From Alphaproteobacteria bacterium (GTDB taxonomy: Bacteria; Pseudomonadota; Alphaproteobacteria; MPNO01; UBA830): a DNA stretch of 64,000 nt. The position numbers and the translations under genes were made by a program. How positions within the stretch are numbered: the stretch's first letter is position 1; each line of letters opens with the position of its first letter. Under the pieces are notes generated by a model. The model was given only the letters and a program-made list of their open reading frames with translations, did no database searches and had not been told where the DNA came from. Location of the stretch: the NCBI GenBank assembly GCA_965243135.1, contig OZ251539.1, positions 3,840,001-3,904,000 on the forward strand, read 5' to 3'. Of this stretch, positions 10,667 through 31,875 are shown piece after piece.

Positions 10667-10713
10667 CAAAAGATGACGGCTAGCTTTTTTTGTACGCATG
10701 TATACGTCGTTCC

Positions 10714-10926
10714 ATGATCGGTGACGAATTTGTACGGCGAGTCCGAAGGCTTGGCAGGGAGCGGGGCATTGCGGTGCGCTTCGAATCCCGAAAAGGCAAG
10801 GGAAGCCATGGTCGCCTTTACTACGGGGACCGTTTCGCCACGGTCAAGGATCGCCGCAAAGAAATTAGCCAAGGTCTCCTCGCGGCCATGATCCGGCAAC
10901 TCGGGATATCCCGAGAAGACATCTGA
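10714..10926 (+). CDS. hicA: Type II toxin, HicA family
   Basis: 70 aa basic protein with KGKGSH motif and EI..GLLAAMIRQLGI. Confidence 0.85.
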   Translation: MIGDEFVRRVRRLGRERGIAVRFESRKGKGSHGRLYYGDRFATVKDRRKEISQGLLAAMIRQLGISREDI

Positions 10927-10943: not shown

Positions 10944-11384
10944 ATGACGATACAATCGATGCGGCTGGCGTATCCTGTCAGACTGAAGGCGGAGGAAGGG
11001 GGAACGGTGCTGGCGTCGTTTCCCGACATCCCGGAGGCCTTGACGGAAGGCGCTACGGAGCGGGAGGCGCTAGCGGAAGCTGAGGATTGCCTTGTCGCCG
11101 CTCTCAGCGGATACGTTGAGTGCCGCCGCGACATTCCACGGCCGTCGCCGGAGAGAGGGCGCCCACTCGTTTCGTTGCCCGCGCTAGTCGCCGCCAAGGT
11201 CGCTCTCTACCGCGCGATGCGCGATTGCGGGATCGGCAATGCTGCGCTGGCCAAGGAATTGGGAACCGTGGAGGGGACGGTCCGGCGCTTGCTCGACCTC
11301 GACCACCGGTCGCACATCGGGCAAGTCGAGGCGGCGCTTCATGTCTTGGGACAGCGCTTGGTGGTGGCGACACGGGCTGCATAG
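10944..11384 (+). CDS. hicB: Type II antitoxin, HicB family with C-terminal HTH
   Basis: YPVRL..VLASFPDIPEALTEG..EALAEAEDCL..IPRPS; directly after hicA. Confidence 0.88.
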   Translation: MTIQSMRLAYPVRLKAEEGGTVLASFPDIPEALTEGATEREALAEAEDCLVAALSGYVECRRDIPRPSPERGRPLVSLPALVAAKVALYRAMRDCGIGNAALAKELGTVEGTVRRLLDLDHRSHIGQVEAALHVLGQRLVVATRAA

Positions 11385-11436: not shown

Positions 11437-12230
11437 GTAGAGTCGAGGACTGGCGCGTTAGCGTTAGGGTCCGGTGGATGTTTCGTCGCTTTCGCTCCGG
11501 GCCTCAGTCCGGCTTCCGTGGCCACGTGTCCCCGCTCTCCGAACCAGACGTGCGGATCTCCCGCGCCTCCAGCCATGCGTCTCGCCCACGGATGATTTGG
11601 CAGCGTTCCCGGAACGGCCGGTCTTCCGGACCCGGGAGTTGCACCGTCTCCCATTTCCGCCTGTTCCCGCTTTCCGTCGCCGAGCCTGTTTACGCCTCGA
11701 CGGTCCCGGCCTCTCGACCGGGTTCCTTCGCTTCTGCATGCGGCGCTTCCGGGATCTCCGACATGTGGCCGGTTGTTAGGCATAGCCCCTTCTCCCTTGC
11801 GGCACCCTTCCTCGCGCCCCTTTCCTCCGCCGACGTTACCCGGCTTCTCCGGTACTACGGGCCTCTCCGCCACCCGCCGGCCTGCCCCTCGCGGGGTTCC
11901 GGTTGACTCGTGCGCGTCACCGACAGGGTTTCCCGTGTTGCTGCTTCCTTCATCTTCCATGCGTGCCGACACCCCGGCGGAAACGGTCGGTGCTTTTGTC
12001 GTTCTCTTCCCGACCGTCGGCCGCTTTCCCCTGGTTTCCAGAGAGTCAGCTTCCTCATGGCATGTTTCGAGGCCTGGTTTACTCGCGTTTCGGCCCGCAT
12101 GTTCGCTGAGCGGCCTTCGCCGCCCTTTTTCCAGAGTGCTTCAGCCTACGCTCCGTAAGCCGCCCCGGCTGACCGGAACGACAGTTGTTGAGTCGCACCC
12201 ACCAGAAGAAAGCGCCTTTCCACGGCGCAC
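11437..12230 (-). mobile_element. Group II intron with internally deleted RT ORF (about 794 nt)
   Basis: 5' end GTGCGCCGTGGAAAGGCGC at 12230. Domain V-like GCGGGAGATCCGCACGTCTGGTTCGGAGAGCGGGG and 3' end ..CCTCGACTCTAC at 11437. Only vestiges of the RT start (..HAEAKEP) and end (..LPNHPWA) remain. Confidence 0.8.
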
Positions 12231-12258
12231 GGAAACAATCAAGCAATGAAGCAGAAAC

Positions 12259-12471
12259 TTACCCCAACATGTATCGATCTTCGTACTCGGCGTGAACGGT
12301 CATCGCGAACTTCTCAAGCTGCTTGAAGGTAAGCTAGAAATCGCCGCTCTCCCATTCACGGTATTTTGGGAACTTGCGAACCAGCGAAGCGACAACCGCG
12401 CCGACGCGCTCGCATTCCCGACGCAGCAGTTCCTGCTTGACGTCGACGCGAAAAGTTATCGCCGCTCCCAT
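12259..12471 (-). pseudogene. N-terminal HTH remnant of an ImmA/IrrE-family Zn-peptidase protein
   Basis: FRVDVKQELLRRECER..RKFPKYREWESGDF*LTFKQLEKFA with in-frame TAG at 12334-12336; peptidase domain absent. Confidence 0.65.
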
Positions 12472-12729
12472 GCCTAGAAATGCTGCAACCTGTCGTGCGG
12501 TTGCTCGTCATAGTGCCACCCTTCGTGAAAAGTCTCGAAGAAATGGATGCGCTACCATTCGTCGAGACCGTAGATGCCGGCGACACGGCATCAAGTTCAT
12601 GGATCATATCTTGCCAACCTATGCCGCCGACGGGTCCATTGGAGAGGTCCATGGATCTAGCCAAAATGGCGGCGCGTTCATCCGGAAAGGTGAAGCGTCC
12701 GGCAAGCTCAACGACTCGCCATTCTCCAA

Positions 12730-14592
12730 CTAACCGCAGCGACGACCGTGGCACTCCTTGATGGGACCGTGATTATCTATCTGATACTGCGTACGACCAC
12801 AGTACACACAGGTTTCGTAGTACATTTGTTCCTCACGCTGTATATTGGTAGATTCCCTTGATCTTTTTTCGAGGAAATTTGGTCTCCAAATACTCACCAA
12901 GTCGCCCGGTATCAATCGCCAATCTTCGTCCATCGAGATATTGGACCGTAACGTAACCTTGAACTTGAACGAATCAGTCATTGTATGTTGAGTTTCACTT
13001 TTGGAATTCTTTTTTTTTGAGCCCGATTGGACGAATTTATTGTCGTATCTCGCTTCAGAATCCCTACCATTCACATTTGACAAATTCAGACAGAAATCAA
13101 GATTGTGTATCTCGGTTTCAACCATTTCTCGCCGACCTTTAGAGATCAACCTTATATGTGCCACATAGTCATGGTCAATTTGGATTTCACATTCTAGGCG
13201 TTCCAGAAAAGGACGTGCCTTCGGGTCGACAGGTAAATTAAGAGAGGCAAGCTTTACCCTCTCATCATTTTCCTGTAAAAGTCCGACTTTGCGTGGTTTA
13301 GCGAACTCAAACACCGCGGATCCGTCTCGCGGATCAATACAAAAGAAGCGTTTGCTGCAAACAGGAATAATTTCATTCTCCACAGGTAGGATTTGGGTTG
13401 TGTCGACCAAGGGCAAACAACTGCCACGTCCGATTCCGTCAGATACCAATACCTCAAGCGGCTTCGCCAAGGTAAGCCTTAATCCGTCGTGGGCAATCCA
13501 AGCAGCTCCTTCCGCGATTATCCTGTCACGATTGGAAAGGTCAGGTACGCGAGTACCAAATCGTTCGACCAATCCATTCCAAATTGCCGGCATGTTCACC
13601 ATCCCACCGGTTGCTATGCAGAGCTCAATATCGCTACGATCAAGAAGCGCTTCCTCAAGAAGCTGATCAATTTTGGAAAGACCTCGTTGGACCAAGTCCT
13701 CGGAAAGAAGTTCAAGTTCATTTCTTGTTATGTCCACGGAAAGATTTCGTTCAGGACCACTACTACGGAGATAGTCTTTAGCGATTACCGTAAAGAGGTC
13801 TTCGCTCGAAAGAGCTATCTTCGCTTGCTCGCATTGTGTTAACAGTTTGGCCGACGAACCTGGCTGCTCAAGAGCGTTAACGTCCTTAATACCATACGGC
13901 TCTGTGTGTTTGTTCCTAATTTGATTACGAAGCCGCTCGTCAAATCGATCCCCGCCTATTTCATTATTCCCTAGATTAGCAATTTGCATAATGGTTCCTC
14001 CCAATACCCGGCAAACGGTCAGGTCAAGGGTGCCGCCGCCCCAATCAAAGACAAGAACGACCTTGTTCTCCAGTCTAGAAAGTTCTTGACTGAAGTTTGG
14101 TTTCGAACGCACGTAAGCGTACAGTGCTGCCGCGGGTTCTTGGACGAACTGAAGCACACCAATTCCTGCTTTTCTAGCGGCAGCACGCAAGGCGCGACGT
14201 TGAGGTCCGGCGAAATCTACCGGGATAGTCATTACGGCACGCGAAATTTCGTATCCATCCGTATCTCGATCAGCCGCATTTCTCCGAATATATGAAAGAA
14301 CTTCCGCAACAATATCAATCGGGTCAACAGCTTTGCCGAGAATATGTACCGCCCCTTCCCTTCGCAAACTCATTTTTGGGGAGCGGACGAAGCCATGCGC
14401 GGCGTCGGTTTCCAACGATTGAAGATGCCCTTTCGCCTCCCGCCCAACAATTATCTCGGCACCCCGGTACCAAACGACTGAAGGATGTGGTTTGTCGTCT
14501 TCATCGGTCAGAGTCTGAACCTCATCTCCGATAACGAACGCCGCAAGACTGTTGGTCGTGCCGAAATCCACCCCAAAGGTCAAGTCACTCAT
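12730..14592 (-). CDS. Atypical Hsp70/DnaK-family protein, 620 aa
   Basis: GVDFGTTNS (phosphate 1), VFDWGGGTLD (phosphate 2), TGGMVNMP, AEGAA; divergent C-terminal half with a Cys-rich tail. Confidence 0.88.
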   Translation of the reverse strand: MSDLTFGVDFGTTNSLAAFVIGDEVQTLTDEDDKPHPSVVWYRGAEIIVGREAKGHLQSLETDAAHGFVRSPKMSLRREGAVHILGKAVDPIDIVAEVLSYIRRNAADRDTDGYEISRAVMTIPVDFAGPQRRALRAAARKAGIGVLQFVQEPAAALYAYVRSKPNFSQELSRLENKVVLVFDWGGGTLDLTVCRVLGGTIMQIANLGNNEIGGDRFDERLRNQIRNKHTEPYGIKDVNALEQPGSSAKLLTQCEQAKIALSSEDLFTVIAKDYLRSSGPERNLSVDITRNELELLSEDLVQRGLSKIDQLLEEALLDRSDIELCIATGGMVNMPAIWNGLVERFGTRVPDLSNRDRIIAEGAAWIAHDGLRLTLAKPLEVLVSDGIGRGSCLPLVDTTQILPVENEIIPVCSKRFFCIDPRDGSAVFEFAKPRKVGLLQENDERVKLASLNLPVDPKARPFLERLECEIQIDHDYVAHIRLISKGRREMVETEIHNLDFCLNLSNVNGRDSEARYDNKFVQSGSKKKNSKSETQHTMTDSFKFKVTLRSNISMDEDWRLIPGDLVSIWRPNFLEKRSRESTNIQREEQMYYETCVYCGRTQYQIDNHGPIKECHGRRCG

Positions 14593-15631
14593 TCGGTTTC
14601 TCCAATCGAGACCGTACCGCCTTCATGGCCATATTAATACGTTGAACAGCTGCCGTTGCATTGGGCGGTATAAACTCCAGTGCATCTAACGCATCGGAAA
14701 GCGGCGGCTTTAATCGATCTTCCAAGAAGCCTCGAAATTGCCCGTTTCGTGTTCTTTCATCGAGCTCCCGCAATTTTTTTTGTTCATCCAATTGTTTTTC
14801 AACCTTGCAGAGTTGATCGGAGAGACGGATTCGTTCTCTTTTCGCAATTTCCAAATCGCTAGTGGTCGCGTTCAGTTTCATCTCCATAAGATTCATATCT
14901 TCTCCGAGCTTCGATAACTGGGCGAAAGTTTGCCGCGCATCCTTTGTTTTCTCCTCGACAATAGCCTCAAAATAATTGGCAATCAACGCCAGATCATGGA
15001 GGTGATTTAATTTAGCAATTTTGACTAGCCGAACTGTGGCAGCATGGACGCCAGTATTCGTTACTGGCGCTTTTTTAGATTTAATTTTTCTCACAGATAA
15101 AAGTGCATCATCAGGTTTCAAATTACGCTCATCCACCAGCCAATTCAGAGCGAGACGCAAGAAGTTTTGCGCTTTTGTTCGACGGGCTTTATCTTTATCA
15201 GAAAGGTGTTCAGAAAGCGTCTGTACGATCCGGCCGAATAACTCATTAGGAGACATATCCTCGTTCGATGACGCGCCCGGCATATAGTGATCTAGCGAAA
15301 TCTTTGTTGCTCTCGCAATCCATTTGTTGATTGGATCCGGTCCCTTTCCCACAAGCGACACAGTTCGAACTAATGTTGGATCAGCGACTTCAAGTTCTTG
15401 GATAGCTTTCGACATGTCATCCGCATCGAAGATCTTGATCTTCGCTTTCCGCACGCATTTACAGAAGGCCAACGGCTTAATCCGAGGATCGGAGTAGTAT
15501 AGAGAAATCTGAGGTTCTATGGGGATCTCCCTCTGTTCATCTCCGTTGACGTTTGGTTTCATGGCGTTCATACTCTTTCGACTAAGATCATTCTGCAGCT
15601 GGACGTCAGGTTCAGTCTCTTCGGTTGGCAT
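14585..15631 (-). CDS. Hypothetical protein with long C-terminal coiled coil
   Basis: Open frame of about 348 aa; GAGGAG RBS 8 nt before ATG at 15631; heptad-rich C-terminal third; overlaps the Hsp70 start. Confidence 0.78.
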   Translation of the reverse strand: MPTEETEPDVQLQNDLSRKSMNAMKPNVNGDEQREIPIEPQISLYYSDPRIKPLAFCKCVRKAKIKIFDADDMSKAIQELEVADPTLVRTVSLVGKGPDPINKWIARATKISLDHYMPGASSNEDMSPNELFGRIVQTLSEHLSDKDKARRTKAQNFLRLALNWLVDERNLKPDDALLSVRKIKSKKAPVTNTGVHAATVRLVKIAKLNHLHDLALIANYFEAIVEEKTKDARQTFAQLSKLGEDMNLMEMKLNATTSDLEIAKRERIRLSDQLCKVEKQLDEQKKLRELDERTRNGQFRGFLEDRLKPPLSDALDALEFIPPNATAAVQRINMAMKAVRSRLEKPNE

Positions 15632-15633
15632 CG

Positions 15634-16818
15634 TCAAAGCTCCTCTATATCCTCAAGGCAACTGGTTGCCCATTCCCCGAACGGATATGTCGAACTCAAT
15701 AGCCTTAACGGATCGATAGCATCCGCAGCAACATCCAATCGCAGACTCGTCGACGCCCAAAGTGCATATATTTTCAAGCGATCGCTCATCGTCAGTGTCG
15801 TTTCATTGGCGTATTTATTGCACTTTTCCCGTAATGCCGTTTCCCATCTCGTCGAGGAACCGAGTTGCACGAAAAAATCAAGAATATGATCTGTTGCTTC
15901 ATCAATCGGGCAGATTGGGATTACCCCCTCAACTCCGAAGTGCAACGCAGGCGGGCGGATCAAAATTTTTGATGACTTATCGGGATCTACTTTCGAGGCT
16001 TCAGCCTCGTTTCTAAGCAGTGCAGCGAGCATTGAATTACACCAATCAAGCCTCCTAAAACCCGAGCGCGATTCGACAGCGCTAAAATCATTGAAGGTAA
16101 ACCGCACAACTGCGCTGATCACCATGGCTAACGGCCGCGTAAAATCCTTCAATCCGTCAAGCGCTTTACCATAAAGGCTGTCAGCCTCGGAAGGCGGCAA
16201 GGTGACGCCAGTCACCTGATCCTTCACGAGCACAGCTCGGACATACGATCCTAATGCGTCGGCGTAATCTCGAACGACGCCGTGGCAACGGCTATCCTTT
16301 AAAAATGCAGCGACCTGTTGCATGCTGGGTTCGTCGTGCGTCAAGTGTTCCTTGAACGCTAGGTCGACTTCGTCCAAAGACGTTTTGTCGGGTATCCGAA
16401 GCTCAAAATAATATTGTTGATAAACTGGGCTTGCCACATTATCGAAACGATTGGCAAGTTGAATTTTGATATTTGCATCTGTCTTTTGGGACAGTAGTTT
16501 CGGAACATCGTGCGGAGACACTTCTTTCTTCGCCAACCCATTAACTTCGATATACGCTGTTGAACTGTTCTTTATGCCAATCTGCGCAGCTGCCAACGGC
16601 TGGGTAAACCTCGAAGATTGATCCGGTTCCCGTCCGCTAACCATTAATATTGGTCGTTCACCCACATGTTTCAAAGATAAATGGTCATTCAGAGAACGCT
16701 GGTCATCAAAGCGTTCACCGCAAAACGGACACGGTAGAAGCTGTTTCCCCGGTGTCAAAGGTAACGGTAGCGGCGAAGAACGAAGCATGTCGTCTTCATA
16801 GTATGAAGCGAATCCCAA
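15634..16818 (-). CDS. Hypothetical protein with N-terminal C2H2 zinc finger, 394 aa
   Basis: TTG start after GGAG; CPFCGERFDDQRSLNDHLSLKH; first gene of a tightly packed 3-gene operon. Confidence 0.78.
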   Translation of the reverse strand: MGFASYYEDDMLRSSPLPLPLTPGKQLLPCPFCGERFDDQRSLNDHLSLKHVGERPILMVSGREPDQSSRFTQPLAAAQIGIKNSSTAYIEVNGLAKKEVSPHDVPKLLSQKTDANIKIQLANRFDNVASPVYQQYYFELRIPDKTSLDEVDLAFKEHLTHDEPSMQQVAAFLKDSRCHGVVRDYADALGSYVRAVLVKDQVTGVTLPPSEADSLYGKALDGLKDFTRPLAMVISAVVRFTFNDFSAVESRSGFRRLDWCNSMLAALLRNEAEASKVDPDKSSKILIRPPALHFGVEGVIPICPIDEATDHILDFFVQLGSSTRWETALREKCNKYANETTLTMSDRLKIYALWASTSLRLDVAADAIDPLRLLSSTYPFGEWATSCLEDIEEL

Positions 16819-17407
16819 GTGCTTATCACTCCAATCAATCTACGGAATTGGCTAGCTACACAGAGCTTCAGAACAGCGCGGCATGACCAAATCAATAGTT
16901 CGTTTTGAATGGCTCAGAAAGTTGCGGTTCACTGAGAGCCCTTGACCGCTCGGAAAGCCGCAACAAGCGGACTGAAGCCCGCTCAGCCGAAGTATATGCA
17001 CAAAACTTCGCTCGGCGCAAGTCATCAAAGGTGATGGCGAGGTCCTTTGACCGGATTTCTCAGACGCGGTCGTTTGCGGCAGGGGCGGAGTCTGGGCGGA
17101 TGGACATCGTAACGGCCCTTCCGCGATACGCCGAACTAAATGACTTCAGGTGCGGATTTATCGATAACGTTGCCTCTGTCAGCGGCTCAGACCGCAGTAT
17201 TGCCGGCCGTCAAGAGAAGTCGTCGGAAAGAAGATAGCCGGCGTCGGCGATGGTCGGGCCTTGCTGGTTTTCGGTTCCGGGGCGTCTGGCACCGGGACGG
17301 AGCGCCTGCGGGACCCCTGCCCGACGAGAGGTTTACAGGAAGGCGCACAGCCGAAAAAGAAAAACGCACGGCTTGACGCCAAGCAATACGTGTACTATAT
17401 ACGACAC

Positions 17408-17761
17408 ATGACGCACTTCGGCGATACGGCCCGCGAAATCCGCGAACGCCTTCGCGGCGACGATCGGCGCTATTCGCTCCGCCAGGTCGCGGGACGGGTC
17501 GGAATCGAACCGGCCTATCTGAGCAAGATCGAGCGCGGCGACGTGGCGCCTCCGTCGGAAGCCACGACAAGGCGACTGGCGGAGGAACTCGATCAGGACC
17601 CGGATGTGTTCCTGGCGCTGGCGGGAAAGGTGTCCCGCGATCTGCAGGACATCATTCGCAAGCGGCCGGAACTTTTCGCGGAGCTGATCCGGCAGCTGAA
17701 GGACGCGCCGGACAGCGCAATCCTCCGCGTGGTGCGCGAGGTGCGGGACGGCGAATGGTGA
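17408..17761 (+). CDS. XRE-family HTH transcriptional regulator
   Basis: SLRQVAGRVGIEPAYLSKIERG; TTGACG-17-TATATA just upstream, possibly leaderless. Confidence 0.88.
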   Translation: MTHFGDTAREIRERLRGDDRRYSLRQVAGRVGIEPAYLSKIERGDVAPPSEATTRRLAEELDQDPDVFLALAGKVSRDLQDIIRKRPELFAELIRQLKDAPDSAILRVVREVRDGEW

Positions 17762-17776
17762 AAGGGAGAAATTGCC

Positions 17777-18772
17777 ATGATCACGCTCGAAGCCGACAGG
17801 CTGGAATTCCGTTTTCCGGAGGTTCACGAGGACGCGCGTTGCGTCATCGAATTTCAGCGCACGCTGCGCATTCCCGACGACGGCGGAACTTATCCGTTGC
17901 CGCCGGGCCTGGGGAGGTTCCCGTTGCGGCATCTGGACGACCATGCGGAGAGGCTGCCGGAGGACTGGCTGCGCCGCGGCGGAGTGATCGCTCCCATGCA
18001 CCAGGCGGAGGCGCTTTGGATCAACTTCAGCTCTTACGATTACCCGTGCGCGGTGAAGATCGCGACCGGCAAGATATGCGCGGTGACGGGCGACAACTGG
18101 ATCGATCACCTGAACGGCGATCCCCAGGACTACGTCGTCGTCCCCGAACAGCCGTGGCTTGACGGTTACTGCGTCGAAAAGGGCGTGATCCGGCAGTTCG
18201 TCGCCATGCCGCTCGGCGAGGGCTACACGGCGGAAGAGCAATTGACGGGCGCTGCGCGGCACGGCGGATTGCAGCTTCTCGTATGTCCCATGAAGAGGGA
18301 ACGATACGAGGCGATAACGGAGGACAATGCGGTTTTTAGCGTCAAAGCGCTCTATTGTGCGTCGCCTGCCATGGGACTGGCGCCGGGCGGGCGCATGAAG
18401 CAGGAAATTTACGATGACCCTCACGGTCTGGACGCTTGGGATCAGCGCCAGGTCCGTCGCTGCTTCGTCACCATCGCCAATTCCGCTCAGTGGACGGATA
18501 TCACCGGCGAACGGCCGCCGACCGAACCGCCGACTGCGAAAAGCTACGCGGAGGCGGGGCTGCCGTGGTTCGACTATTACGGCGGCGACCTGAAAGTTCG
18601 TCCCGGAGCCGAAAAGCTCGCCGGACTCGCAAGCGTCGCGGAAACCGCGTCGAAAAAGGGCGACCCGCCGCCGGCCGGCAACGAATCGCTCGACGTGACC
18701 CTCGACGTGACCAAGGTGCTCCCGATTCGAGCGCCGGGCGCGAACCGCGTGAGGGAACCCGAACCGATCTGA
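17777..18772 (+). CDS. Conserved hypothetical protein (FQRTLRIPDD..PLPPGLG family)
   Basis: Motifs FQRTLRIPDD, LPPGLGRFPL, QDYVVVPEQPWLDG, IRQFVAMPLG, MGLAPGGRMKQEIY; good RBS. Confidence 0.8.
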   Translation: MITLEADRLEFRFPEVHEDARCVIEFQRTLRIPDDGGTYPLPPGLGRFPLRHLDDHAERLPEDWLRRGGVIAPMHQAEALWINFSSYDYPCAVKIATGKICAVTGDNWIDHLNGDPQDYVVVPEQPWLDGYCVEKGVIRQFVAMPLGEGYTAEEQLTGAARHGGLQLLVCPMKRERYEAITEDNAVFSVKALYCASPAMGLAPGGRMKQEIYDDPHGLDAWDQRQVRRCFVTIANSAQWTDITGERPPTEPPTAKSYAEAGLPWFDYYGGDLKVRPGAEKLAGLASVAETASKKGDPPPAGNESLDVTLDVTKVLPIRAPGANRVREPEPI

Positions 18773-30169: not shown

Positions 30170-30895
30170 TCATCGCGGTTTCGCGCCCTTTTGTCGAACA
30201 AATGCTGCGCGAACATTCCGCTCAATCCGGTTGGGCTTTACTTCGTATTCAACGAAATCACCAATGCTGTCGTGCCTCATGTGCAATTGACCTTCGCCTA
30301 TATTCCCACGGTGCTGGCCTGTCGAATAGCGAGGATGCTTTGCTACTTCCCGCGACGAAAGGACCCAATACCGAATAAGGTCGCGCCACACCGCGATCAA
30401 TACAAAGATGTCGCAGCAGTCGCACTTCACCTGCTGAAAATTCATCCAGAATTCTTTTCCCGAATCCGAGTGCAAAGCCTTGATGTAGAGAGGTTCATCC
30501 GAATTCGCATCCACCGCTCTCGACGCTTTGACTTCAATGCGAATGTTATCCAACAATAGGTCGTATTGTCCGGAATATTGCGGATCTTCGCTTTTGGTTG
30601 GTTTTTTTAGATTTGGAACCAAGCTTTTTAGATGGCCCTGCGCCCAAGATTCGCCGAAAGAACGAGGTGCGCTAATCTCAAAAATATAAAGGAAAAGATT
30701 CCTATTTACGTAGTTATTCCGAAGTTCGTAATAGTCATCTAGAGTTAGTATTTTCATTGCGAGAAGTGTGCAAATAATGTATTCGTACTCATTGAATGGA
30801 TAAACTGAAACGAGAGACTCAACTCTTTCCCGAATTTCCTTTTCTTCAGGTATGTTTTTCAACAAATTATCGAGTTCTTCCTGAAGACGTTCCAT
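30170..30895 (-). CDS. Putative type II restriction endonuclease, PD-(D/E)XK fold
   Basis: YDLLLDNIRIEVKASR; TGATG-coupled to the methyltransferase; AT-rich. Confidence 0.75.
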   Translation of the reverse strand: MERLQEELDNLLKNIPEEKEIRERVESLVSVYPFNEYEYIICTLLAMKILTLDDYYELRNNYVNRNLFLYIFEISAPRSFGESWAQGHLKSLVPNLKKPTKSEDPQYSGQYDLLLDNIRIEVKASRAVDANSDEPLYIKALHSDSGKEFWMNFQQVKCDCCDIFVLIAVWRDLIRYWVLSSREVAKHPRYSTGQHRGNIGEGQLHMRHDSIGDFVEYEVKPNRIERNVRAAFVRQKGAKPR

Positions 30896-31875
30896 CAGAA
30901 CAATGTTTCTTGAGTGGACGGCGCTATCGGCTGGACTACCCCGACGTCCGCGAGGTCGTTTTCGAAGGGATGTCCATTTTGCCATCCGGTTCGCCCTGCT
31001 GTACGAAATCGTTCAAGACGACGAATGGAGATTTCAGCGTAGACAGGATCAATATCGATCGTGAAGCATTTTCTGTTAAGGATTTCACACGCCAGCAAAG
31101 TCGTACCGGAATGGGCAAAAAAATCTACTACCAAATCATCTGGTTTGGAGCTCGCTTGAACAATTCTTTCAATGGATTTCATTGGTTTTTGAGCATAGCA
31201 GCCAGAAACATTTTCCTCCATTCTATAAAATATTTGCTGAATATCGACCCAGACATTTCCTGCACGAATTGTATCCGATTTGCTCCTTTCCATATTCTCC
31301 ATTTTTCTTCCGTTTATTTCTTTATAGTATCCGCGCAGGATTTTAGGAATGTCAGTGTATTCCGCATCGACATTGAAACTCGGATTTCCTTTGGTATAGT
31401 AGAGCAGCTCTTGGCGAACCGCCATCCAGTTTTTTGGGGTTCCGTATCCACGCTGGTTTCTCATGGTGATATGGCTTCGCGCACGAAACGGTTGGTCTCT
31501 CATCATGATTATGAAGTCCGGGAACGGTTGGAAATCGTTTTTTTGATCCGCGCCTATCCAGACATAAAGAGATGAATCTGGAGTCAAAATACCGTATGTA
31601 TTAGATATCCATGTTTTGCACCATAGAATAAAATCCGGGATAGAACGGAATTCGAATGCCGCAAGGTTATATGGTGGATCGTGAACAGCGAGTTGTGCAC
31701 GTTGTCCGTCCATTATTTCTTCGATTTCCTCGAAATTACCCGCATCCAGGCATCCGACGCGGTGACCGTGAAGGCTGTCGGTCCAGATTTGCCCGGGCTC
31801 GAGCCGGCAATATGGAAGCAGCTTGCGGCGCAATTCTAGAGAGGTGTCGAGCCTCGGCAGAGGATTGTTTTTCAC
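30895..31875 (-). CDS. Site-specific DNA methyltransferase (N4/N6, beta class)
   Basis: HDPPY precedes QKP and DFFAHSGTT (SAM-binding motif variant). Confidence 0.9.
   Translation of the reverse strand: MKNNPLPRLDTSLELRRKLLPYCRLEPGQIWTDSLHGHRVGCLDAGNFEEIEEIMDGQRAQLAVHDPPYNLAAFEFRSIPDFILWCKTWISNTYGILTPDSSLYVWIGADQKNDFQPFPDFIIMMRDQPFRARSHITMRNQRGYGTPKNWMAVRQELLYYTKGNPSFNVDAEYTDIPKILRGYYKEINGRKMENMERSKSDTIRAGNVWVDIQQIFYRMEENVSGCYAQKPMKSIERIVQASSKPDDLVVDFFAHSGTTLLACEILNRKCFTIDIDPVYAEISIRRLERFRTAGRTGWQNGHPFENDLADVGVVQPIAPSTQETLF

Follow-up and report, generated by a model that had tools for sequence, protein, structure and literature searches.

We describe here a three-gene locus, A-B-C, found in a 64,000-nucleotide (nt) stretch of an alphaproteobacterial genome (contig OZ251539.1, positions 3,840,001 to 3,904,000), hereafter referred to as the window, with coordinates counted from its first letter. 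The triad is a genuine, mobile, and undescribed Hsp70-based candidate defence system. With modest confidence, we read it as a horizontally mobile and self-contained module with an Hsp70 engine at its centre, whose most likely role is immunity against phages or mobile elements. All three genes are on the minus strand. Gene A (15634-16818) was defined from its open reading frame (ORF) and translation, encodes 394 amino acids (aa), and starts with TTG preceded by GGAG. Gene B (14585-15631) encodes 348 aa counted from the ATG at 15631. Its longest ORF runs from a TTG (14585-15637, 350 aa), but the ATG is the likely start, as it lies behind a GAGGAG Shine-Dalgarno sequence and a homologous record starts at the same place. 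Gene C (12730-14592) encodes a lidless Hsp70-family ATPase of 620 aa. The stop codon of A is separated from the ATG of B by 2 nt, and the stop of B overlaps the ATG of C by 8 nt (ATGAGTGA). The original prediction of three co-oriented genes with abutting or overlapping ends and AT-richer than the host thus stands. Specifically, the triad occupies a low-GC islet at 12100-17000 (no strand assigned), with a core at 12700-16900 and a transition zone on each side. The GC content is 0.46-0.50 over 13-17 kb in 1-kb windows, with a minimum of 0.385 in 200-nt windows, versus 0.62-0.70 in the flanks and 65-69% for the genome. No convincing direct or inverted repeats were seen bracketing the islet.

A, B, and C are an obligate three-gene unit whose reading frames are coupled. 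Scanning metagenomes with the C profile returned at least 516 relatives, of which the best 80 were kept, 76 of them unique. The A-B-C order on one strand is present in all 51 metagenome loci having at least 2400 nt upstream, and B adjoins C in 62 of the 63 loci having at least 1100 nt upstream. As a control for position, the A and B profiles were run against 4276 six-frame ORFs. All 65 matches to A are on the strand of C, 0.8-1.7 kb upstream of it, and 79 of the 80 matches to B lie directly upstream of C; the B profile used here was built without the Pseudomonas rows, and L087 and L095 lose their B match with it. The sole B match out of place is in locus L055 (329-1411), where the B gene is apparently split into two ORFs (329-679 and 743-1411). 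In the genome scan, three alphaproteobacterial metagenome-assembled genomes (L001, L002, and L005) and two Pseudomonas loci (L003 and L004) proved to have this order. Seven of the twelve loci of that scan (L006-L012) are Chloroflexota/Anaerolineae Hsp70s of 24-27% identity and were set aside. Two Paenarthrobacter conjugative plasmids also carry the triad; in the one examined (L015), A is cut by an IS3 element and is followed by B-like and C genes. The gene order is hence conserved in 51 of 51 informative metagenome loci, five genome loci, and a plasmid, and no fourth gene beyond those of BREX is common to the triad loci. In L015 (5463-12112 of a Paenarthrobacter ureafaciens conjugative plasmid), the A homologue has 242 aa, covers profile positions 28-233, and ends before the IS3 transposase, and an extra 446-aa coiled-coil gene follows the Hsp70 gene.

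The distribution of the triad is sporadic. C is present in two of 401 genomes sampled from the class, the window's own included, and in none of 60 relatives, four of which belong to the same genus. In a tblastx comparison of the window flanks with all loci, only loci with the module of the neighbouring XRE-type gene matched, and none of the triad loci shares the flanks. The triad travels between phyla (Proteobacteria and Actinomycetota). The sporadic distribution, the GC contrast, and the carriage on plasmids together show horizontal acquisition, in agreement with the transfer that had been proposed from the window sequence. The three genes evolve at different rates. Across 21 loci, the median identity to the window's proteins is 52% for C, 33% for A, and 26% for B. 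This faster divergence of A and B relative to C is the pattern expected of recognition subunits.

Judged by its sequence, C is a lidless Hsp70 with an intact-looking ATPase engine, an interdomain linker, and an SBDβ-like domain, SBD denoting the substrate-binding domain. Residues 6-368 match Pfam HSP70 (PF00012) with an E-value of 1.2e-52. The nucleotide-binding domain (NBD) comprises residues 1-370 (13483-14592, minus strand), and the family profile matches DnaK NBD structures with an E-value of 5e-57. C has the hallmarks of the Hsp70 superfamily, namely an actin-like NBD with the phosphate-1, phosphate-2, and adenosine motifs and the catalytic D, K, E, D, and T; in an alignment of 46 homologues, D9, K73, E152, D183, T188, and G329/G330 are invariant. 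The NBD is followed by a conserved hydrophobic linker and the SBDβ-like domain at about residues 375-505 (13078-13470, minus strand). The family profile extends into the DnaK substrate-binding domain, with profile positions 4-528 corresponding to residues 3-500 of 2v7y and positions 4-499 aligned to residues 35-509 of 4rtf, and the alignments reach DnaK residues ~500-546 (2v7y, 4rtf, and 6w6e). The profile alignment and the conserved linker thus point to a substrate-binding β domain behind a hydrophobic linker, as in Hsp70. The conserved block stops near residue 505 and gives way to a variable linker and then an optional C-terminal Zn-ribbon tail (CxxC ... CxxxxC) at about residues 545-620 (12733-12960, minus strand). 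Among 73 complete C genes, 63 have the tail and 10 do not. Some of the tail-less genes have a separate small ORF directly downstream (L005, 8536-8835; L057, 4965-5486; L058, 2348-2962). The ORF in L005 matches residues 539-620 of the window's C, indicating that the tail was split off or frameshifted there, and a related downstream ORF is common to L057 and L058.

Different from canonical DnaK, HscA, and HscC, C has no helical lid (SBDα), and its scores fall far below the NCBIfam equivalog cut-offs: 167.8 bits versus 648 for DnaK, 162.3 versus 620 for HscA, and 55.9 versus 331 for PRK11678. Among the PHROGs, C matches phrog_22485 through its NBD only, and a tblastn search of 50,697 phage records at E≤1e-40 found no match to C. 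A and B stand in place of the usual DnaJ and GrpE neighbours, and both are unrelated to J-proteins and GrpE; searches of Pfam and NCBIfam revealed no DnaJ or GrpE match in either, so that the triad lacks the partners of a canonical DnaK system. The original prediction had described the locus as unlike dnaK, hscA, and hscC contexts.

In its AlphaFold2 model (mean predicted local distance difference test score, pLDDT, 82.4), A comprises an N-terminal C2H2 finger, an Ig-like β-sandwich at about residues 55-141, and a TPR-like helical domain at about residues 145-394. The finger spans residues 28-52 (16663-16737, minus strand). Its ligands C30, C33, H46, and H51 follow the pattern C30-X2-C33-X12-H46-X4-H51, which conforms to the classical C2H2 motif (C-X2-4-C-X12-H-X3-5-H). 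As a single sequence, A matches the Pfam zf-C2H2 families with E-values of 8e-4 to 2e-3, below gathering. The family profile of A matches solved C2H2 fingers (2i13, E 1.6e-13; this value adds up five stretches, each of them one finger of the multi-finger protein). In 52 homologues, the four zinc ligands are conserved at 96-100%, and so are six polar residues of the helical domain (Y185, K199, N243, D306, D346, and K349). The assignment of A as a PD-(D/E)xK nuclease was dropped, as the invariant D306 and D346-x-x-K349 misfit the spacing and secondary structure of that motif. Foldseek against the Protein Data Bank (PDB) and a BFVD search each gave no match to A at E≤1e-3. The best VIA-align scores (Z 8.2-8.4) are with TPR or helical-repeat chains over residues 306-394, which for helical repeats is within noise, and Pfam gave no TPR match in A. 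The best ESM Atlas match (0.82) is an archaeal cluster named C2H2 with TPR, which is below 0.9 and serves as a lead only.

In the AlphaFold2 model of B (pLDDT 90.7; residue numbers follow the 350-aa TTG ORF), a helical N-terminal domain (44-207) is followed by a single uninterrupted 112-residue helix (210-321) and then by a terminal helix (327-346). At E≤1e-3, B has 145 representative homologues of equal length, which indicates a real family rather than mere coiled-coil composition. Foldseek found no match to B in the PDB at E≤1e-3, and a PDB profile search returned generic coiled coils only. The best VIA-align match is a helical hairpin of the histidine-kinase DHp type (Z 7.1), within noise, and the best ESM Atlas match (0.78) is below 0.9 and likewise a lead only. 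No sequence match to the GrpE, BAG, or HspBP1 folds was found in Pfam, NCBIfam, or the PDB profiles. A J domain in A or B was considered and dropped, given no conserved HPD motif in the consensus lines and no Pfam match. We also predicted the complex of B with C. The median score was 0.60 (runs of 0.61, 0.60, and 0.00), and the best of three controls scored 0.00. Of 80 solved complexes, 58 reach the mark used for such predictions, as do 2 of 110 mismatched pairs; with scores no higher than 0.60, only 7 of the 80 solved complexes reach it, together with both passing mismatches. Across the B-C runs, the contact agreement was at least 0% and the partner pLDDT at least 73, and no interface was reported.

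The structural matches for A and B are all within noise. Beyond this, NCBIfam gave nothing above noise for either protein, PHROGs gave no match, and the triad has no recognisable nuclease, protease, pore, or NADase domain. PADLOC v2 (PADLOC-DB v2.0.0) assigned no family to A, B, or C at E≤0.1, and our search of the literature found no description of the triad, although supplements and subscription journals were outside the search and an earlier mention is possible. These results bear out the claim that no named defence system has this composition.

In other genomes, the neighbours of the triad are overwhelmingly genes for defence or mobility. In L003 (Pseudomonas iridis), PglX and PglZ of a type I BREX operon enclose the triad; a BrxC fragment precedes PglX, and BrxL follows PglZ. 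The L004 triad has Wadjet JetC/JetD on one side and a TOTE system on the other. The neighbours in L001 are two integrases, a NUDIX gene, and a type I restriction-modification (R-M) system, and those in L005 are DprA/SLOG, an HNH nuclease, and an SMC-like ATPase. In the plasmid locus L015, two DUF262 genes and a methylase-helicase-GIY-YIG set lie on the flanks. BREX genes, identified from PADLOC matches to PglZ and PglX and from BLAST clustering with the annotated proteins of L003, adjoin or enclose the triad in 13 of the 57 unique metagenome loci with any flanking ORF. We then scanned 98 ORFs of 180-1000 aa that lie in the flanks of 42 loci, at most 3.5 kb away. Most frequent are PglZ (six), GmrSD-like (five), PglX (three), and ResIII helicases (three), followed by BrxL, TOTE, integrase, M78, and Eco57I-type methylases (two each), single transposases, and one McrBC component. 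The association of the triad with defence genes, which had been put forward as a check, is strong but qualitative rather than statistical, and the BREX link is facultative. One arrangement recurs. In L068, L072, and L088, A-B-C is followed by a gene of 561-579 aa (probably one of the five GmrSD-like matches), then PglZ (777 aa), and then BrxL; L091 has the arrangement without the 561-579-aa gene, and PglX lies upstream of A in L072, L088, and L091. This recurrence indicates that the triad and a type IV restriction gene share a BREX insertion site.

The triad belongs to a known theme of Hsp70-containing conflict systems and is a member of no named system. It resembles the DnaK-DnaJ-GrpE machine in consisting of three genes that would cooperate and in that C has an Hsp70 NBD, the catalytic residues, the hydrophobic linker, and an SBDβ-like domain. 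It differs from that machine in that the variable linker and Zn-ribbon tail occupy the place of the lid, the partners carry no J or GrpE domain, and the locus is sporadic, horizontally moved, and found in defence islands. PARIS is another defence system embedded in type I BREX between pglX and pglZ. The triad of L003 is at the same pglX-pglZ insertion site as BrxU/GmrSD embedded in type I BREX; unlike BrxU/GmrSD, the triad proteins are of unrelated families and the triad is also present where no BREX gene is near, the window being one example. None of the BREX core genes (PglZ and BrxC, plus PglX and BrxL) is among the scanned window ORFs, and the window locus is accordingly not a BREX locus. 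The main text of a 2026 BREX survey (PMC12839542) contains no mention of Hsp70, DnaK, chaperone, actin-like, C2H2, or ASKHA.

Among other Hsp70-containing systems, the CnuD/CnuCD proteins of the CoCoNuT type III McrBC systems have Hsp70-like NBD and SBD (PMC11090510). The triad is similar to them in that an Hsp70-like NBD and SBD are recruited into predicted defence systems featuring long coiled coils (PMC11090510). CnuD is, however, defined there by its link to McrB-like NxD GTPases and McrC DUF2357, HEAT repeats, and HEPN RNases, and its Walker A-like motifs are degenerate (PMC11090510), whereas the triad has no McrB, McrC, or HEPN and the ATPase residues of C are invariant. Neither an McrB-like NxD GTPase nor McrC DUF2357 was found in A, B, C, or the scanned window ORFs; the unit has exactly three genes in 51 of 51 loci, and an McrBC neighbour is present in one of 42. 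The systems of Kaur et al. (2020), DO-GTPase/tubulin/Hsp70 and GAP1-N2 with Hsp70 and GrpE, are described as GTPase-centric conflict systems of TRAFAC GTPases, tubulin, GrpE, and DnaJ-fused FNIII proteins, mainly from actinobacteria and firmicutes (PMC7159879). Hsp70-family NTPases are proposed there as switches or assemblers (PMC7159879), which the triad would parallel, but none of those components is in the triad. A lidless DnaK-like domain is also reported as fused to EACC1-protease modules and suggested as a sensor in a death-effector module (PMC12642450). That domain shares ~50% identity with DnaK and is joined to a cysteine protease that has an EACC1 pore effector (PMC12642450); C, in contrast, is a separate protein with two dedicated partners and neither protease nor pore. 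A 2026 preprint repeats the proposal that switches of the STAND NTPase kind can be replaced by Hsp70-like NTPases (10.64898/2026.10.19.760177).

How the triad may work can be outlined as follows. C would act as an ATP-driven clamp or switch. A, with its three binding modules and fast evolution, may be the specificity or sensor subunit and would hand a protein or nucleic acid of the invader to the lidless SBD, a job that is normally the J-protein's. B would dimerise via its very long helix and scaffold the complex, and may also act as an exchange factor. Because no effector domain is recognisable in the triad, it most likely acts by capturing or remodelling an essential phage component directly; another possibility is that the invariant polar residues of A form an unrecognised catalytic site. 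There is some, rather small, likelihood that this amounts to chaperone-based immunity with no conventional effector, or that C is a DnaK decoy detecting phage hijack of the host chaperone. Were no effector involved, the lidless Hsp70 would recognise a phage protein or nucleoprotein, with A aiming it and a B dimer organising it, and would use ATP to trap or unfold that target, so that infection is blocked and the cell is not killed. If either version is true, Hsp70 would be a primary immune sensor-executor in bacteria.

Several observations weigh against the immune reading. The case for defence is one of guilt by association, and 44 of the 57 metagenome loci with flanks have no BREX gene, most of their neighbours being not individually named. 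Upstream of the triad in L002 are the housekeeping genes AsmA and ATP12, and in the window the triad is flanked by HicAB genes and an XRE gene only, and then by housekeeping genes. Pfam, NCBIfam, PADLOC, PDB profiles, Foldseek, and VIA-align revealed neither an effector domain nor an enzymatic or toxin fold in either partner protein. The roles proposed for A and B as sensor, scaffold, and exchange factor have no direct support, and the B-C complex prediction gives weak support for an association and no interface.

These points have to be set against what other functions would explain. It is improbable, in our estimate, that the triad is nucleic-acid-directed, with the finger of A and the tail of C binding DNA or RNA and the Hsp70 remodelling a nucleoprotein as an accessory layer to BREX-like DNA-targeting systems. 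The conservation of the zinc ligands (96-100%), the Zn-ribbon tail in 63 of the 73 C genes, and the 13 of 57 loci at or within BREX, often with a GmrSD gene too, fit such a function, and the CoCoNuT authors argue that Hsp70-like CnuD proteins bind RNA (PMC11090510). However, most loci, the window included, have no nearby BREX gene, the tail is missing in the remaining 10 C genes, a single C2H2 finger can equally serve protein contacts, and the unit contains no nuclease. Similarly improbable is a non-immune function as a specialised chaperone set by which mobile elements secure their own maintenance or host stress tolerance, in which A and B would be the dedicated co-chaperones. TPR-like domains are typical of Hsp70/Hsp90 co-chaperones, C is by sequence a near-complete Hsp70 with an active-looking ATPase, the triad occurs on conjugative plasmids and beside integrases and transposases, and the neighbours in L002 are housekeeping genes. 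Yet the repeated insertion in BREX operons and at the Wadjet/TOTE site is hard to explain by plasmid maintenance, no conserved client gene accompanies the triad, and grpE-dnaK-dnaJ is already present in the genome.

Likewise improbable is a circuit of the toxin-antitoxin-chaperone (TAC) type that serves as guard or decoy. There, C would restrain A or B as a latent toxin, and hijack or saturation of the Hsp70 by a phage would free the toxin and abort the infection. A lidless Hsp70 binds and releases clients quickly, and this turnover would suit a guard, as would the tight coupling of the three frames and the invariant polar cluster in A. TAC systems whose chaperone resembles SecB are reported to protect against phage (10.1101/2024.02.24.581848). 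But no toxin fold was recognised in A or B, and neither of them is small or antitoxin-like. The preferred reading remains the mobile immune module built round C, in line with the original prediction, which is supported as far as computation can reach, with protection against phage and a switch role of the Hsp70 being its predicted parts. In the conflict systems described earlier, Hsp70-like domains are accessory to GTPase, McrBC, or protease machinery; in the triad, the Hsp70 is the sole enzyme of a compact, conserved, widespread, and mobile unit that is recurrently inserted in defence loci. If the triad defends, it would represent a mechanistically new class of immunity with a chaperone engine as sensor or effector, and a tractable three-gene system for studying how the Hsp70 cycle is re-aimed with neither J-proteins nor GrpE. 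If it does not, it would still be an unrecognised Hsp70 subfamily with two novel obligate partners.

The surroundings of the triad in the window only partly match the island that had been proposed, with integrase, toxin-antitoxin, intron, and ImmA/IrrE remnants. The toxin-antitoxin part holds. A HicA-like toxin (10690-10926, plus strand; Pfam E 1.1e-5) and a HicB-like antitoxin (10944-11384, plus strand; Pfam E 1.4e-3), both just below gathering, lie on one side, and an XRE-type HTH gene (17261-17761, plus strand; Pfam HTH_31, E 4.5e-10), divergent from the triad, lies on the other. The integrase, intron, and ImmA/IrrE parts fall away: a six-frame search of the 6.1-Mb genome gave 25, 6, and 8 matches to integrase PF00589, RVT_1 PF00078, and Peptidase_M78 PF06114, respectively, and none of them is in the window, the nearest M78 match being 1.9 kb past its end. 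Rfam found nothing over 8000-34000. Beyond the HicAB and XRE genes are an MFS transporter, a luciferase-like oxidoreductase, QueA, and TGT. That no dnaJ or canonical grpE is nearby proved correct, as all DnaJ and GrpE matches of the genome-wide six-frame search are outside the window, with the grpE-dnaK-dnaJ cluster ~875 kb away.

A scan of promoters and terminators gave 7 versus 4.1 ± 1.8 expected and 12 versus 6.5 ± 2.9 expected, and no transcript ends were drawn from it. A terminator-like hairpin is at 12212-12228 on the minus strand, ~500 nt downstream of the C stop; the interval in between (12229-12729) has an intermediate GC content of 0.52-0.57 and no recognisable gene. A second low-GC islet (window 30170-31875; GC 0.467 at 30-32 kb) contains two overlapping minus-strand frames, an N6_N4 DNA methylase gene (30895-31875; Pfam E 1.8e-31) and a 271-aa ORF (30170-30985) for which Pfam gave no match; the two may form a small R-M pair. 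The stretch 17385-18590 covers part of the XRE gene and most of a 331-aa ORF (17777-18772) that has no Pfam or PHROG match. It recurs in five of the 60 relatives with 73-75% nucleotide identity, at unrelated positions and with the triad in none of the five, and looks like an independent mobile two-gene cassette.

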